A stretch of DNA of 64,000 bases from Planctomycetota bacterium (GTDB taxonomy: Bacteria; Planctomycetota; MHYJ01; WSZJ01), in contig WSZJ01000030.1 in NCBI GenBank assembly GCA_009773755.1, forward strand, positions 7,955 through 71,954, written 5' to 3'. Positions 25,358-60,530 of the stretch are shown piece after piece; within the stretch, counting starts at the first letter, position 1, and every line of letters begins with the position of its first letter. Under the pieces are notes generated by a model that ran no database searches, was not told where the DNA came from, and saw only the letters and a program-made list of their open reading frames with translations. A program made the translations under genes and the position numbers.

Positions 25358-26227
25358 TCACTTCACCCGGTTCTTCTCTTTCTCCACGATGTCCGCCATG
25401 GCTTGCTCGGCTTGCTTGCAGACGGGGAGTCCTTTGTACTGGGCGATGACCTTCTTAAGTCCTTCTTTCGCGCGCGGGAAGTCCGAGGCGGCGGCAGCTT
25501 CCGTCGCCTGTTCGAGGAGCGCCTTGCCGGATTCATTGAGCCTGTTGAGGCCGTCCTGCGCGCGGCCCGCCATCGTCTTCGCGCCCGGCGCCTTCTCCTG
25601 CTTCACGACGGTGTTGTAGGCCTTGATCGCCTCCGCGATCTTGCCGTCCGACGCGGCCTTGTCGCCCGCGGCGATCTGGTCGCCCATGAAGGTGTACTCG
25701 TCCGCGCCCAGCCCGGGGCCGACTTTCTTCGCCGCTTCCGCCATCTTGTCCGTGAGCAGCTTCGTGGCCATCGCGCCCTTTTCGCGTCCGATTTCGTTCC
25801 CCTCGACATCGCCCCAGATGTGGTGCGGCATGAGGATCGAGCCCTTGAAGAATTTTCCGTTCAGCTCCTGGTAGGCCTGGACGTGTTCTTCGCACGTGAT
25901 GCTCGGAATGATCGAGCACATCTCCTTGTCGCCGACCTTTTTCGTCCCGTGCGTCGTTTCCTTGTTGCAGTAGATCGAGACCCACTTCTTCGAGCTTCCC
26001 ACGAAATCTTTGTTCGGATAGACGGAGCCGTCCATCGTGGTGCAGCCGCCTCAGCCGTCCTTGTGGAACGCGAACATGATCGGCACGTTCCGCGTTTTTG
26101 CTTCTTCCTGGGCTTCCTTCCAGCTGTGGGCCCAGCGCATGGCGGGGCCGGAGCCGTCGGGCGGTTTGGCGAGTGCGACCGCGCCGGTCAGGGCGATCGC
26201 GATCGCGGTCAGGGACAGGTGGCGCAT
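25358..26227 (-). CDS. secreted thioredoxin-fold protein with in-frame TGA in a U-G-G-C motif (candidate selenoprotein)
   Basis: ORFs 26051..26341 and 25358..26035 share a frame and are separated only by TGA 26053-26051. The junction reads ...NVPIMFAFHKDG-TGA-GGCTTMDGSVYPNKDF. AAGGAG SD, ATG 26227 and signal peptide MRHLSLTAIAIALTGAVALA. Confidence 0.7.
26017..26036 (-). promoter_or_regulatory. candidate bacterial SECIS hairpin
   Basis: Starts 14 nt 3' of the TGA. 8-bp stem GAUGGACG/CGUCUAUC (one G-U pair) with a GCUC loop. The apical loop is about 22 nt from the UGA. Confidence 0.45.
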
Positions 26228-56551: not shown

Positions 56552-56785
56552 ATGGCACCTAAAAAGTCGAAACGCGGCCGCCCGCCGATGAAGCAGGGAC
56601 AGGCCAAGTCCATTCTGATCCAGGTCCGGGTCACGCCGGAAGAAGCGAAGGCGATCGAGGAGCAGGCGACGCAGTCGCACAAGCCGCGCTCCGAGTGGAT
56701 CCGCCGCAAGCTCGTGCAGCCCGGCGAACCGAAGCCGCCGCCGAAACCCGAGGAGCCGAAACCCCAGCCGCCGGCGAACCCATGA
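56552..56785 (+). CDS. ribbon-helix-helix (CopG/MobC-like) small DNA-binding protein with Pro/Lys-rich tail
   Basis: ILIQVRVTPEEAKAIEEQATQSHKPRSEWIRRKL is the beta-strand/helix/helix RHH pattern. Confidence 0.6.
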   Translation: MAPKKSKRGRPPMKQGQAKSILIQVRVTPEEAKAIEEQATQSHKPRSEWIRRKLVQPGEPKPPPKPEEPKPQPPANP

Positions 56786-57390
56786 GCGCCGACCCCGTCT
56801 GGGATGGCGCGCAATACGTCGAGCGGTGGGCAGGGGAAGTCAGAGTCAACCTGCTGCGGATCGTCGCGCTCGCGGCGTTTTATGGCTGGCACCTCTTCAA
56901 TTACCTGAACAAGGCGCCGGACCTCACGCCGCAGATCCATTTTGCGATCACGGCGGCCTGCCTCGTCTGGGGTCTCTCCGCGCTGGCGGTTCACCTCGCG
57001 CTCAACCGGCGGTATTGTCCTCCCGCGCTCCGGTACGGCGCGATCGCGATGGACGCGCTGATGGCGACGACCGTGCTGCTGGTGGCCGACGGGCCGAAGA
57101 GCCCGCTCGTCGTCGTTTACTTCCTCGTCGTCGCGAGCGCCGCCCTGCGCCTCGACCTCAAGGCCGTCTGGGTCGCGGTGCTCGCGGCCGTCCTCGGCTA
57201 CGCCACGCTCTGCGGCCAGGCGAAATGGCGCCGCCCGGAGATGAACGTCCCGCGCCGCGCGCAGGTCACCGTCGCCCTCGCCCTCGGCTGCGCCGGGCTC
57301 GTCGCCGGGCAGATGGTGCGGCAGGCGAAGCGGCTCGCGCGCGATTACGGCGAGAGGCTGACGGCGAAGGACGAAGAGGCAAAAGCGTGA
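56782..57390 (+). CDS. membrane protein (4-5 TM)
   Basis: ATGA overlap with the previous gene. Hydrophobic segments include LLRIVALAAFYGWHLF, ITAACLVWGLSALAVHLAL and AIAMDALMATTVLLVA. Confidence 0.6.
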   Translation: MSADPVWDGAQYVERWAGEVRVNLLRIVALAAFYGWHLFNYLNKAPDLTPQIHFAITAACLVWGLSALAVHLALNRRYCPPALRYGAIAMDALMATTVLLVADGPKSPLVVVYFLVVASAALRLDLKAVWVAVLAAVLGYATLCGQAKWRRPEMNVPRRAQVTVALALGCAGLVAGQMVRQAKRLARDYGERLTAKDEEAKA

Positions 57391-57836
57391 GCCACGTCCG
57401 TTGCCCGTGCTGCCGAACCGTCGCAGAAGCGACGTTCCGCTTCTGCTACGTCTGCGGTACTGAGTTCGCGACGGGCGGCCGTCTCAACGCGGCGGCGCCG
57501 CCGCTGGCTGCTCAGCAGGCGCGTACGGACTCTCGATCGTCCTCCGTGGCCATCTCCGTTCTCGGGGCGCTCGGCGCGGTTGGGGCGCTTCACGTCGTCC
57601 TCGTGCTCCAGATCCCGATGGTCCAGAAGCTCCTTCTGCTGGCGCTCGTCGGCGGGTTCGCCGCTTTCGGGTTCACCGCAGCGTTCAAGCGGGGAAGCGA
57701 GCACGCCGCTCTGGGCCGAGCGGTCCTCAGAGGATTCGCGGCGCTCGCGTGGGTGTTCCTGATCGGGTTTGTCGTCATCGTCGGCATCGTGATCTACCTC
57801 TTCATCCTCTGCGCCCAGCACGTCGGCAAGTTCTGA
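57387..57836 (+). CDS. zinc-ribbon membrane protein
   Basis: GTGA overlap. N-terminal CPCC...FCYVCG zinc ribbon, then 3 TM segments. Taken from the tail of ORF 56826..57836. Confidence 0.55.
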   Translation: MSHVRCPCCRTVAEATFRFCYVCGTEFATGGRLNAAAPPLAAQQARTDSRSSSVAISVLGALGAVGALHVVLVLQIPMVQKLLLLALVGGFAAFGFTAAFKRGSEHAALGRAVLRGFAALAWVFLIGFVVIVGIVIYLFILCAQHVGKF

Positions 57837-58276
57837 TGGGGCAATTCCGCTGCCTTAACTGCCGGACGGTGCCGCTCGAGGGACACCGCTTCTGTTACGT
57901 CTGCGGCGCCTCGTTTCCGGGCCCGGTCCCGGCGGCAGCTCTGCGCCCGGAGGTGGAGGTCGAAGGCTCCCTCGACATTCGCAGGACCGGAGTCACGATC
58001 GCAGGCCTGACCGGGCTGATTCTGCTCGGGGTCGCGAAGTCTCTCGCTTCCGATTCGAAAAGTTCGTGGCCGCTTGCGGCGCTCCTTCTGATGGCGGGAT
58101 CGTGCACGCTCGTCTGGGCGCTTCAGCCGCGGGGAGAACGGGCGAGCGCGGGCGGCGTGGCGCTCGACGTGCTGCGCACGGTCATTCTCTACCTGCTGCT
58201 TGCGCTCGCCGTCGGCGGCGGGTTGCTGATGCTGCTGATCGGAACGTGCCATTCGTTTGTCGGCAATACAAGCTAG
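57836..58276 (+). CDS. zinc-ribbon membrane protein (paralog of the previous gene)
   Basis: TGATG overlap. MGQFRCLNCRTVPLEGHRFCYVCGASF zinc ribbon plus 3 TM segments. Confidence 0.55.
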   Translation: MGQFRCLNCRTVPLEGHRFCYVCGASFPGPVPAAALRPEVEVEGSLDIRRTGVTIAGLTGLILLGVAKSLASDSKSSWPLAALLLMAGSCTLVWALQPRGERASAGGVALDVLRTVILYLLLALAVGGGLLMLLIGTCHSFVGNTS

Positions 58277-58288
58277 CATGGGAAATTC

Positions 58289-59692
58289 ATGAGCGCGCTT
58301 CGCGACTACACCTACCTCGGCCTGACGCAGTCGCTCTGCCCGAAGTGCCTCCGCCTCGTGCAGGCGAAGATTGCGGTGCGCGAGGGGCGGGTGTTTTTCC
58401 TCAAGACGTGCCCCCAGCACGGGAAGATCGAGGACTTCGTCTGCTCGGACGTGAACTACTACGACCGGCAGGAATTCTCGCGGCCGTCGCGGAAGCCGCT
58501 GTTCTATGCGACGGAAGCGCAGAAGGGATGCCCGTACGACTGCGGGCTGTGCCCGGAGCACGAGCAGCACACGTGCATCGGCCTGGCGGAGATCACGACG
58601 GCGTGCAATCTCGAGTGCCCGATGTGTTACGCGGTGAGCGGGCCGGGCGGGGTGCACTGGAGCTACGAGACTTACACGGAAGTGGTGGACCGCTTCGTGC
58701 GCGCGGAGGGCTCGCCCGACGTGCTGCAGCTTTCGGGGGGCGAGCCGACGATCCACCCTGAGTTCCTGCGGATGGTGAAGTACGCTTATTCGAAGCCGGT
58801 CCAGGTCCTGATGGTCAACTCGAACGGCATCCGCCTCGCCAACGACCAGCGTCTCGTCGACGGCCTCGCGGAATTCCGCGACCGCCTCGAGATCTACCTC
58901 CAGTTCGACGGGTTCGAGAAGAAAACGTGGGAGACGCTTCGAGGCGAATCCCTCCTCGACGTCAAGATGCGCGCCCTCGACAATCTCGCCGCGCGCGGCA
59001 TCCGCTCGACGCTCGTCTGCACCGTCCAGCACGGCCTGAACATGCACGAGATGGGCGCGATCGTGAAACTCGGGATGGAGCGCGAGTGGGTGCGCGGCGT
59101 CTCGTTCCAGCCCGCGACGTACTCCGGTCGCCACATCAATCCCGCCGACCTCCACAACCGCGCGACGATGCCCGACGTCGTCAAAGGCATCGTCGCCCAG
59201 ACCGGCGGCTGGCTCCGCGAGGACGACTTCATGCCCCTCCCGTGCGCCCACCCGAACTGCCACATGATGTGCTTCATCTGGCGCGGCGCCGGAGGGCCGC
59301 TTCCCGTCGGCCGGCTCGTCGACATCAAAAAAAACCTCGACCTCGTCGCCAACACGATCGTCTACACGCCGCACAAGGCGAAAAACGTCGTCGCGGAGTT
59401 TCTCAAGCGTGAAGCGGCGTGCTGCGCACCGGGCGAGTCCTGAGGTCCCGACGAGGCCCCGGCGGTGCCGGGATTCCTGGAAGCGGCGTTGGCGGAGAAG
59501 CTGACCGGCAAGGAAGTGTTCCGGATCACGCTGACGGCGTTTCTCGACAAGCACATCTTCGACGTGCGGCGCGTGATGAAGTGCTGCACGGCGATGCTGC
59601 TGCCGACGGGGCACACGGTGCCGTTCTGCGCGTACAACACCTTGTACCGGGACGGGACGGTGCCGCTGCCGCCGATTGCGGGAGCCCGTTGA
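58289..59692 (+). CDS. radical SAM enzyme (MJ0619/Tes-like architecture) interrupted by one in-frame TGA at 59441-59443
   Basis: CPKC...CPQHG ribbon, CPYDCGLCPEHEQHTC, the radical SAM CNLECPMCYA, and SGGEPT. ORF 59465..59692 is in the same frame and supplies the expected C-terminal KCC...PFCAYN motif. The junction reads ACCAPGES-TGA-GPDEAPAVPGFLE. Confidence 0.65.
59454..59478 (+). promoter_or_regulatory. candidate bacterial SECIS hairpin
   Basis: CCCGGC-GGU-GCCGGG perfect 6-bp stem (59458-59472), extendable by AGG/CCU. The apical GGU loop starts 20 nt after the UGA. Confidence 0.4.
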
Positions 59693-59693
59693 A

Positions 59694-60530
59694 ATGTCGC
59701 GGCCGTACTGGGCGGACGATCCGATGCGCCGAGGCATCTGGGCGTTGTTTGCGGTCGGCCTTTTCTTACTGACGTTCGGAGCGATCGCATTCTTCACCTG
59801 GGCGCGGATGCCCGACTTGGACGATCCACAAGGCCGCACGCGAGTTTCGAATGCGCAGATGTACGCCGTCTTCCAGATCCTCGCGCTTCTCACGGCGATC
59901 GCCCTTCGCCCGAAATCGCTGCTTCCCTGGCGCCGGCGCCTTGCGCTCTACGCGGGGGCGATTGCGGGGGCCGGGATCGGGTCGAAGCTGCCGTTTGCGA
60001 TCACGGGGAGCGAGCCGTTCTGGGCGGCGGGGGCGTGGTTTACGGACGGGAAGACGATTCTCGCGGGGATGGCGGGCGGGTACATCGGCGTCGAGATCGC
60101 GAAGCTCGTCGCGGGTATCCGGGAGAAGACCGGGGACGGCTTCGCGGTGCCGCTGGCCGCGGCTGTGGCGGTGGGGAGGTGGGGGTGCTGGTTCAACGGG
60201 TGCTGCTCGGCGCCAAACGTCCCGGTGCCGATCATCGAGAGTGCGTTCCACGCGACGATGGCCTTCATACTCTGGCGCCTGCAGCGGATTGACGCGCTGC
60301 GTCATCAGCGCCTGAAGTTGTACCTTATTTCCTACTGTATTTTCCGCTTCGGCATCGAATTCGTCCGCACCGAGCCTCGGATCGCGTGGGGCCTCACGGC
60401 GTACCAGTTCGGCGCGGCGGCGTTCGCGGCGGCGCTGGCGGTGCACTGGGTCGTGGACTCCAGGCTCTACGGAAGCGTGGAGACACGGGCAACGGCCCCG
60501 TGGCTGGGCGAAAAACTGCCGGAACGCTGA
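59694..60530 (+). CDS. Lgt-family (prolipoprotein diacylglyceryl transferase-like) membrane protein
   Basis: ATG 59694, 1 nt after the upstream stop. Multi-TM. AVGRWGCWFNGCC resembles the Lgt GR.GN/C..NGE/C motif. YCIFRFGIEFVR resembles the Lgt Y...RF..EF.R motif. Confidence 0.6.
   Translation: MSRPYWADDPMRRGIWALFAVGLFLLTFGAIAFFTWARMPDLDDPQGRTRVSNAQMYAVFQILALLTAIALRPKSLLPWRRRLALYAGAIAGAGIGSKLPFAITGSEPFWAAGAWFTDGKTILAGMAGGYIGVEIAKLVAGIREKTGDGFAVPLAAAVAVGRWGCWFNGCCSAPNVPVPIIESAFHATMAFILWRLQRIDALRHQRLKLYLISYCIFRFGIEFVRTEPRIAWGLTAYQFGAAAFAAALAVHWVVDSRLYGSVETRATAPWLGEKLPER

Follow-up and report, generated by a model that had tools for sequence, protein, structure and literature searches.

The gene described here has its closest described relatives among the radical S-adenosylmethionine (SAM) enzymes. 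One is the archaeal tetraether lipid synthase Tes/GDGT-MAS (MJ0619; structures 7TOL and 7TOM; NCBIfam model NF045702; PMC9433317, PMC8941075). One of its [4Fe-4S] clusters forms a carbon-sulfur intermediate, the terminal carbon of the substrate lies 8.0 A from the C-terminal cluster, and this C-terminal [4Fe-4S] cluster adjoins the lipid pockets; its labile ligand Met439 was reported as completely conserved among 1000 archaeal homologs and is dispensable in vitro (PMC9433317). Bacterial Tes homologs, planctomycetal ones included, have been proposed to synthesise membrane-spanning lipids, as a hypothesis only (PMC8941075, PMC11868695). The other relative, NF045646, appears as 'radical SAM (seleno)protein TrsS' in the selenoprotein family list of PMC13188914, with credit to Haft & Tolstoy 2025, mSystems e0141724. 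Here we analyse a Tes/GDGT-MAS-like radical SAM gene that is interrupted by an in-frame TGA in a 64,000 nt stretch of a Planctomycetota bacterium (assembly GCA_009773755.1, contig WSZJ01000030.1, positions 7,955 to 71,954; hereafter the window). From the sequence and its relatives we suggest with high confidence that the apparent stop is read as selenocysteine (Sec), and that positions 58289-59692 form one selenoprotein gene of 467 residues.

An ATG at 58289 opens a plus-strand frame of 384 codons which ends at TGA 59441-59443 (coordinates checked on the sequence). Past this TGA the same frame reads GPDEAPAVPGFLEAALAEK... for 82 codons up to the TGA at 59690-59692, giving 467 residues in total. 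The junction is ...KREAACCAPGES-U-GPDEAPAVPGFLEAALAEK, or in short form ...EAACCAPGES-U-GPDE. An earlier note, made from the letters of the window, had described the open reading frame (ORF) 58289-59443 and its same-frame continuation, a separately listed downstream ORF starting only at a GTG, and a C-terminal KCC...PFCAYN segment in the continuation that brings the protein to about 467 residues. The sequence bears this out on each count: the frame runs on to 59692, the listed ORF of 75 aa begins at GTG 59465 (a codon that reaches from the loop of the hairpin treated below one base into its 3' arm), and KCC (residues 432-433) and PFCAYN (residues 445-450) both fall in the C-terminal part.

Thousands of homologs came up in a search over 5.8 billion proteins. 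Of these the best 120 are single proteins of 449-509 aa with 59-73% identity, barring one 418-aa protein recorded as partial and two 384-aa clusters; P0002 is the truncated call of the window itself, and P0005 is 85% identical to it. A search of one genome per GTDB species gave 251 stretches with a relative, nearly all from Planctomycetota. Among the best 80 of these the frame is interrupted only in L049, by a TGA at the equivalent codon; L049 comes from an uncultured Planctomycetia metagenome-assembled genome (MAG) that shares its genus with the window. The other 79 are uninterrupted. The homologs are thus one polypeptide and do not end at the point of the TGA, as the earlier note had supposed, and within a phylum-wide sample of 251 genomes the TGA form is confined to the window's genome and that congener.

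The alignment pairs the TGA with a cysteine. In 115 of the 135 homolog sequences with a locatable linker, the stretch leading from a helix to the C-terminal domain carries CC or CxC and then a third Cys 2-7 residues on. The U column falls on this third Cys with agreeing flanks ('CCAPGES-U-GPDEAPAV' in the window vs 'CGPGSGC-C-GPGEAPV' in P0006 and 'CGCGPGG-C-GPADP' in Gemmataceae), and Cys at the U column is likewise seen in 'CCGPGEAPV' (P0006), 'GDCSPV' (P0004), 'GCGP' (the Gemmataceae clade) and 'ACGEA' (P0021). In a maximum-likelihood tree the three putative Sec sequences form a 100/100 clade nested among the Cys forms, the nearest neighbour being P0021 ('DCPEGA-C-GEA') with weak support.

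The TGA is also conserved. Contigs from ERZ27284375, ERZ27284376 and SRR8863439 carry the identical 384-aa call, and contigs from SRR33452767, SRR13871840 and SRR17284923 carry an 85%-identical ortholog, all with the TGA, which is found in the same-genus MAG as well. It is hence kept in six independent assemblies of two diverged lineages (~85% amino acid identity) plus a third lineage, the MAG; the UGA-bearing orthologs (L015-L017 and L049/G002) all lie within one genus-level clade. Between the window and L015 the synonymous divergence (dS) is ~0.6 and the ratio of non-synonymous to synonymous rates (omega) is 0.16 for codons 1-384 and 0.10 for codons 386-455. Past the TGA, third codon positions account for 21 of the 28 differences, with no frameshift and no second stop. 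Purifying selection therefore acts on both sides of the TGA in lineages that keep it, from which it follows that both halves are translated in frame and that a sequencing error or a recent pseudogene is excluded.

Downstream of the TGA the earlier note had pointed to a perfect GGU-loop hairpin resembling a bacterial Sec insertion sequence (SECIS). The hairpin CCCGGC-GGU-GCCGGG is found at 59458-59472 as described, its stem 14 nt past the TGA and its loop 20 nt from it, and it is the centroid fold, with -11.8 kcal/mol alone. The published bacterial SECIS (bSECIS) model has a loop of 3-9 nt, a G in the first two loop positions, a stem of 4-16 bp, a spacing of 16-37 nt and a minimum free energy (MFE) of -7.5 kcal/mol or lower (PMC13188914); a GGU loop, 6 G:C pairs, 20 nt of spacing and -11.8 kcal/mol fit this model throughout. 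In L015 and L049 the outer C-G pair has become U-A, a compensatory change produced by a synonymous GCC -> GCU plus GGA -> GAG (Gly -> Glu), and one more C-G pair is gained.

To put a figure on the hairpin we counted a class of hairpins with a stem of 6 bp or more, 4 or more of them G:C pairs, and with a loop of 3-5 nt that opens with G and begins 17-31 nt from the codon. The present hairpin, whose loop starts at nt 24 from the U, is of the same class as that of selD in this genome. The class follows 2.9% of 7499 control Cys codons of the genome (0.5% with at least 6 G:C pairs) and 12 of the 24 thioredoxin-like UxxC TGA sites of the genome. These counts, along with those at Cys-form homologs, were used in place of MFE z-scores, which for the whole region are 0.35 to 1.06, not significant, and which do not discriminate because the background is G+C-rich. 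An Rfam scan of 59300-59700 with E up to 10 gave two chance matches only and no SECIS family. It should be noted that the hairpin alone amounts to a likelihood ratio of roughly 10-20, no more. As a separate observation, an identical CCCGGC-GGT-GCCGGG, again coding for PAVPG, is found on contig C83 (+9511) in a gene for a BNR/sortilin-like protein with the in-frame TGA 'ETAT-U-VHKLLLHPAVPG'; the hairpin loop begins at nt 30, counted from the T of this TGA.

The machinery for Sec, which the earlier note had wanted checked, is complete. The genome encodes SelA (544 bits), SelB (344 bits, C-terminal part included), SelD (370 bits, with its own in-frame TGA) and a tRNA-Sec (71.9 bits, anticodon TCA), and SelA is present in 5 of 5 same-genus genomes tested, G002 included. 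The selD gene (contig C224:33554) is itself a selenoprotein gene, 'SCAG-U-ASKLGP', and its hairpin GGGUCC-GGC-GGACCU lies 11 nt past the TGA; counted from the U of the UGA, its loop begins at nt 21. A custom genome scan found the 24 thioredoxin-like UxxC sites mentioned above, each a TGA with coding signal on both sides.

Some of the observations weigh against reading the UGA as Sec. The covariation in the stem is a single event in three sequences, and 157 of 500 shuffles equal it. The stem also codes for conserved residues (PAVPG/E), and 4 of 57 loci of Cys-form relatives, which have G+C-rich linkers, show a hairpin of the same class after the homologous Cys codon. About 20 of the 135 homologs keep CC only, lacking the third Cys and the loop, and these are among the closest by identity (68-72%). 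The claim that homologs have Cys at the TGA column accordingly stands for the 115 with the three-Cys motif and fails for these. Finally, a GAGG lies 7 nt before GTG 59465 in the window and in L015.

This last point belongs to a different account of the locus, in which ribosomes terminate at UGA 59441 and start anew at GTG 59465, and chains of 384 and 75 aa assemble without Sec. Gene callers do annotate two ORFs on all contigs, and selection on the downstream frame fits such an arrangement as well. We nevertheless consider it improbable, as no other family member is split, the stop is always TGA in the three lineages and pairs with Cys, and the GAGG is lost in L049 (GACG). Moreover, a G:C hairpin of 6-7 bp, in whose loop and 3' arm the GTG lies hidden, would hinder initiation, and this genome decodes UGA as Sec at many sites. 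Reading of the UGA as an ordinary amino acid, by near-cognate Trp, Cys or Arg or through a reassigned code, would also account for the continuity and the downstream selection. It seems very unlikely: the code is standard, with TGA ending the present gene and many other ORFs, a SECIS-type hairpin and the full Sec machinery are at hand, and the UGA aligns with Cys, the residue that usually pairs with Sec.

A nonsense mutation, leaving either a decaying pseudogene or a functional truncated enzyme of 384 aa, could draw on the dispensability of the third Cys in some relatives and on the fact that the gene was not found in 5 of 7 same-genus genomes, all of them incomplete. The TGA and the intact downstream frame have, however, been kept over the divergence and under the selection given above for L015, and the truncated product would be without the entire C-terminal cluster domain, which is invariant in the family; we give this account a slighter chance still. 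A sequencing or assembly error at 59441-59443, of which the sequencing error was among the refuting cases of the earlier note, has a negligible chance given the same TGA in the six independent assemblies, the diverged orthologs and the third-lineage MAG. Sequencing error, recent pseudogene and alternative genetic code were all rejected on the recurrence of the TGA, the selection and the standard TGA stops. The Sec reading of the split radical SAM gene, as the earlier note had put it forward, is thus supported by the homologs, the machinery, the recurrence of the TGA and the fit of the hairpin.

Read through, the protein has the four-domain layout of GDGT-MAS/Tes, that is, a zinc ribbon or rubredoxin-like site, N- and C-terminal auxiliary cluster motifs, and a SAM core. 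The radical SAM domain PF04055 scores 60.5 bits against a Pfam cut-off of 29.5, and the zinc ribbon aligns to the GDGT-MAS site C9-x2-C12-x20-C33-x2-H36. The top NCBIfam models are TrsS, with 328.9 bits against a cut-off of 490 and a collinear match to profile positions 3-437 of 441, and Tes, with 275.4 bits against 450; as both scores fall under the cut-offs, the protein lies outside both equivalog families. The only close solved structure is GDGT-MAS 7TOL (E 4.7e-70). An AlphaFold2 model of the full read-through protein has a predicted local distance difference test (pLDDT) of 85.3 and a predicted template modelling (TM) score of 0.89, and its best fold match is again 7TOL. It superposes over its whole length on 7TOL/7TOM with a TM score of 0.81 over 488 columns, hence the 82 residues past the TGA are integral to the fold. 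In the model the neighbourhood of the Sec, residues 381-390, is a low-confidence loop (pLDDT ~50) that follows helix 361-378. The coordinates of these features are collected in Table 1.

Table 1. Features of the interrupted radical SAM gene and its neighbours, in window positions
Feature	Position	Strand	Basis
Predicted complete selenoprotein gene, Tes/GDGT-MAS-like radical SAM, 467 residues, putative Sec at codon 385	58289..59692	+	Read-through translation collinear with 450-490 aa homologs; AlphaFold2 model
Zinc-ribbon / rubredoxin-like N-terminal domain, residues 9-53 (C17, C20, C41, H44)	58313..58447	+	Pfam PF23545 Zn_ribbon_HMPTM, E 1.9e-17
Radical SAM CxxxCxxC motif (C106, C110, C113)	58604..58627	+	PF04055 spans residues 101-261; columns invariant in alignments
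CC doublet C378, C379, start of the CC-x5-U linker motif	59420..59425	+	TGC TGC; C379 invariant, C378 nearly invariant among homologs
In-frame UGA, codon 385, predicted to be read as Sec	59441..59443	+	TGA kept in L015-L017 and L049/G002; aligned to third Cys of linker motif
SECIS-type hairpin, 6 G:C pairs (59458-59463 with 59467-59472), loop GGU 59464-59466	59458..59472	+	Centroid fold; bSECIS constraints
C-terminal cluster cysteines KCC (C432, C433) and PFC (C447)	59582..59629	+	Columns invariant or nearly so
True stop TGA	59690..59692	+	Sequence
Lgt-family membrane protein paralog, conserved partner	59694..60530	+	Pfam PF01790, E 1e-11
Four tightly packed upstream genes	56552..58276	+	Gene calls on identical contigs, Pfam
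Ribbon-helix-helix (RHH)/NikA-like gene	56552-56785	+	
202-aa membrane protein gene	56782-57390	+	Multi-pass
Two zinc-ribbon membrane protein genes	57387-57836, 57836-58276	+	

Based on the above we propose that SelB with Sec-tRNA(Sec) would bind the GGU-loop hairpin at 59458-59472, 20 nt downstream, with the ribosome at UGA 59441-59443, and that selenium would in this way be inserted at codon 385. Sec385 would then take the place of the third Cys of the CC-x(4-5)-C motif, which lies in a flexible loop directly ahead of the C-terminal cluster domain. In the alignment with GDGT-MAS, L415 and T416 stand where the archaeal enzyme has Cys438 and its labile ligand Met439, T416 being nearly invariant in the clade, and the archaeal enzymes are without the CC...C linker. 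As the archaeal residues are replaced here and the archaeal enzyme has no Cys-rich linker, the CC...C/U loop with Sec385 may act near the C-terminal [4Fe-4S] cluster, either as a ligand or through a redox-active residue.

The earlier note had the Sec replacing a cluster or redox Cys. The alignment of the TGA with the third linker Cys upholds the replacement; the role of an essential cluster ligand is not established, since relatives with CC only are among the closest and the third residue is therefore dispensable in some lineages. Its loss there resembles the dispensability of Met439, and this analogy would argue against an indispensable structural ligand. Further, we speculate, with considerable doubt, that at the C-terminal [4Fe-4S] cluster the CC-x5-[C/U] loop contributes a residue which traps radicals or serves as the fourth, exchangeable ligand, and that selenium has taken the place of this residue in the planctomycete genus. 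If so, a lipid C-C coupling enzyme would have an auxiliary site that is naturally Se-ligated or Se-trapping, and synthesis of the full-length protein would depend on the selenium supply.

An Lgt-family paralog follows the Tes-like gene directly in 63 of 80 homologous loci (other Planctomycetota species, L050-L128), and the two genes form a conserved two-gene module. Of the four upstream genes only that for the 202-aa membrane protein recurs (21 of 80 loci). A true Lgt role for the paralog was rejected, as it scores 20 bits on TIGR00544 against a cut-off of 118.9 and a bona fide Lgt is found on contig C32. The recurrence of the paralog points to a membrane glycerolipid as substrate, and judged by this gene context the enzyme probably modifies a membrane lipid tail. 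The protein belongs to an uncharacterised planctomycetal Tes/GDGT-MAS-like clade, partnered with the Lgt-like membrane gene.

Other in-frame TGA codons were seen in the window and elsewhere in the genome. At window position 26053 (minus strand; contig C293) a gene with a thioredoxin fold has the TGA in 'FHKDG-U-GGC', followed by a hairpin of 8 bp whose GCTC loop begins at nt 26. Two further sites in the window, 63156 and 12915 (minus strand), are unconvincing as Sec sites: 63156 has the same-frame junction '...LKGFVLG*RAANIPLDEGG' and no Cys nearby, and 12915 has 'IAMSG-U-SSC' and no hairpin by the class criteria. Contigs C110 (+2422) and C253 (-12938, -16309 and -19755; scanned-strand coordinates) hold four paralogs of ~1100-1250 codons from stop to stop with the TGA in 'APD[FY]-U-T[HF]FWRQV' and then a hairpin of 5-7 bp whose loop reads AGGTC or AGGTG. 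The one paralog run in Pfam (C253 -16309) has FG-GAP repeats, UnbV_ASPIC, an AhpC/TSA domain and tetratricopeptide repeats. We regard these paralogs as a candidate multi-copy selenoprotein family. On contigs C18, C224 and C276 there are three paralogs with the TGA in 'NGHPLACT-U-NNG' or 'DGHVLGAT-U-GNG' and coding signal on both sides.

Pipelines give a pair of "hypothetical" proteins of 384 and 75 aa on every contig, and inventories of Tes-like lipid enzymes and of selenoproteins both miss the gene. With it, two branches of the Tes/TrsS radical SAM group would use Sec, and geochemists regard this Tes-like branch as a candidate for making membrane-spanning lipids in bacteria. The natural pairing of Sec and Cys next to the C-terminal auxiliary cluster would also be a handy probe of the cluster surroundings (77Se, heavy atom); engineered Sec substitutions have served as such probes in other radical SAM enzymes (PMC10177961). 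The gain is incremental, as radical SAM selenoproteins are already catalogued and the Sec form is confined to one genus.

Compared with the known systems, the protein shares with archaeal Tes/GDGT-MAS the zinc-ribbon/rubredoxin site, the N-terminal cluster motif CPYDCGLCPxH, CxxxCxxC and RCC...PFC, in addition to the likeness over the whole length, and it departs from Tes in its score and its linker as given above. We know of no Sec form of Tes. ArsS (TIGR04167, GxxU) and the SbtM-type maturases (PMC13188914) are likewise radical SAM proteins with Sec for Cys outside CxxxCxxC and with truncated gene calls, but the similarity is at superfamily level only (34 and 28 bits), and the architecture and the Sec position are different.

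TrsS, the best NCBIfam match, has the zinc ribbon, the radical SAM core and the PFCAY tail in common with the present protein; Cys residues likewise abound (CCC/CC) in the linker that leads to its C-terminal domain, and some of its members are selenoproteins. On the other hand, our protein scores far under the TrsS cut-off and has only 30-36% identity to TrsS, its partner gene is Lgt-like and its other neighbours are small membrane and zinc-ribbon proteins. On the TrsS profile the scores of two Cys-form relatives are 360 bits (P0006) and 336 bits (P0021). No TrsS above the cut-off was found in the 251 Planctomycetota genomes. No interrupted TrsS gene was found in these, in ~200 genomes of the phylum reached via L057 (labelled Acidobacteriaceae), which gave one Cys-form TrsS, in the protein searches or in the metagenome scan of 80 loci. 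A further domain, PF18978, is present in some TrsS proteins of 665-687 aa (P0154, P0176, P0203 and P0213). P0389, a TrsS-like protein that is truncated, breaks off directly ahead of the cysteine in PPG-C-EH, the equivalent of C319 here. This hints that the Sec site of TrsS may differ from the present one, in which case Sec would have been acquired independently here. From these sequence comparisons we place the present protein as a predicted Sec form in a clade sister to TrsS.

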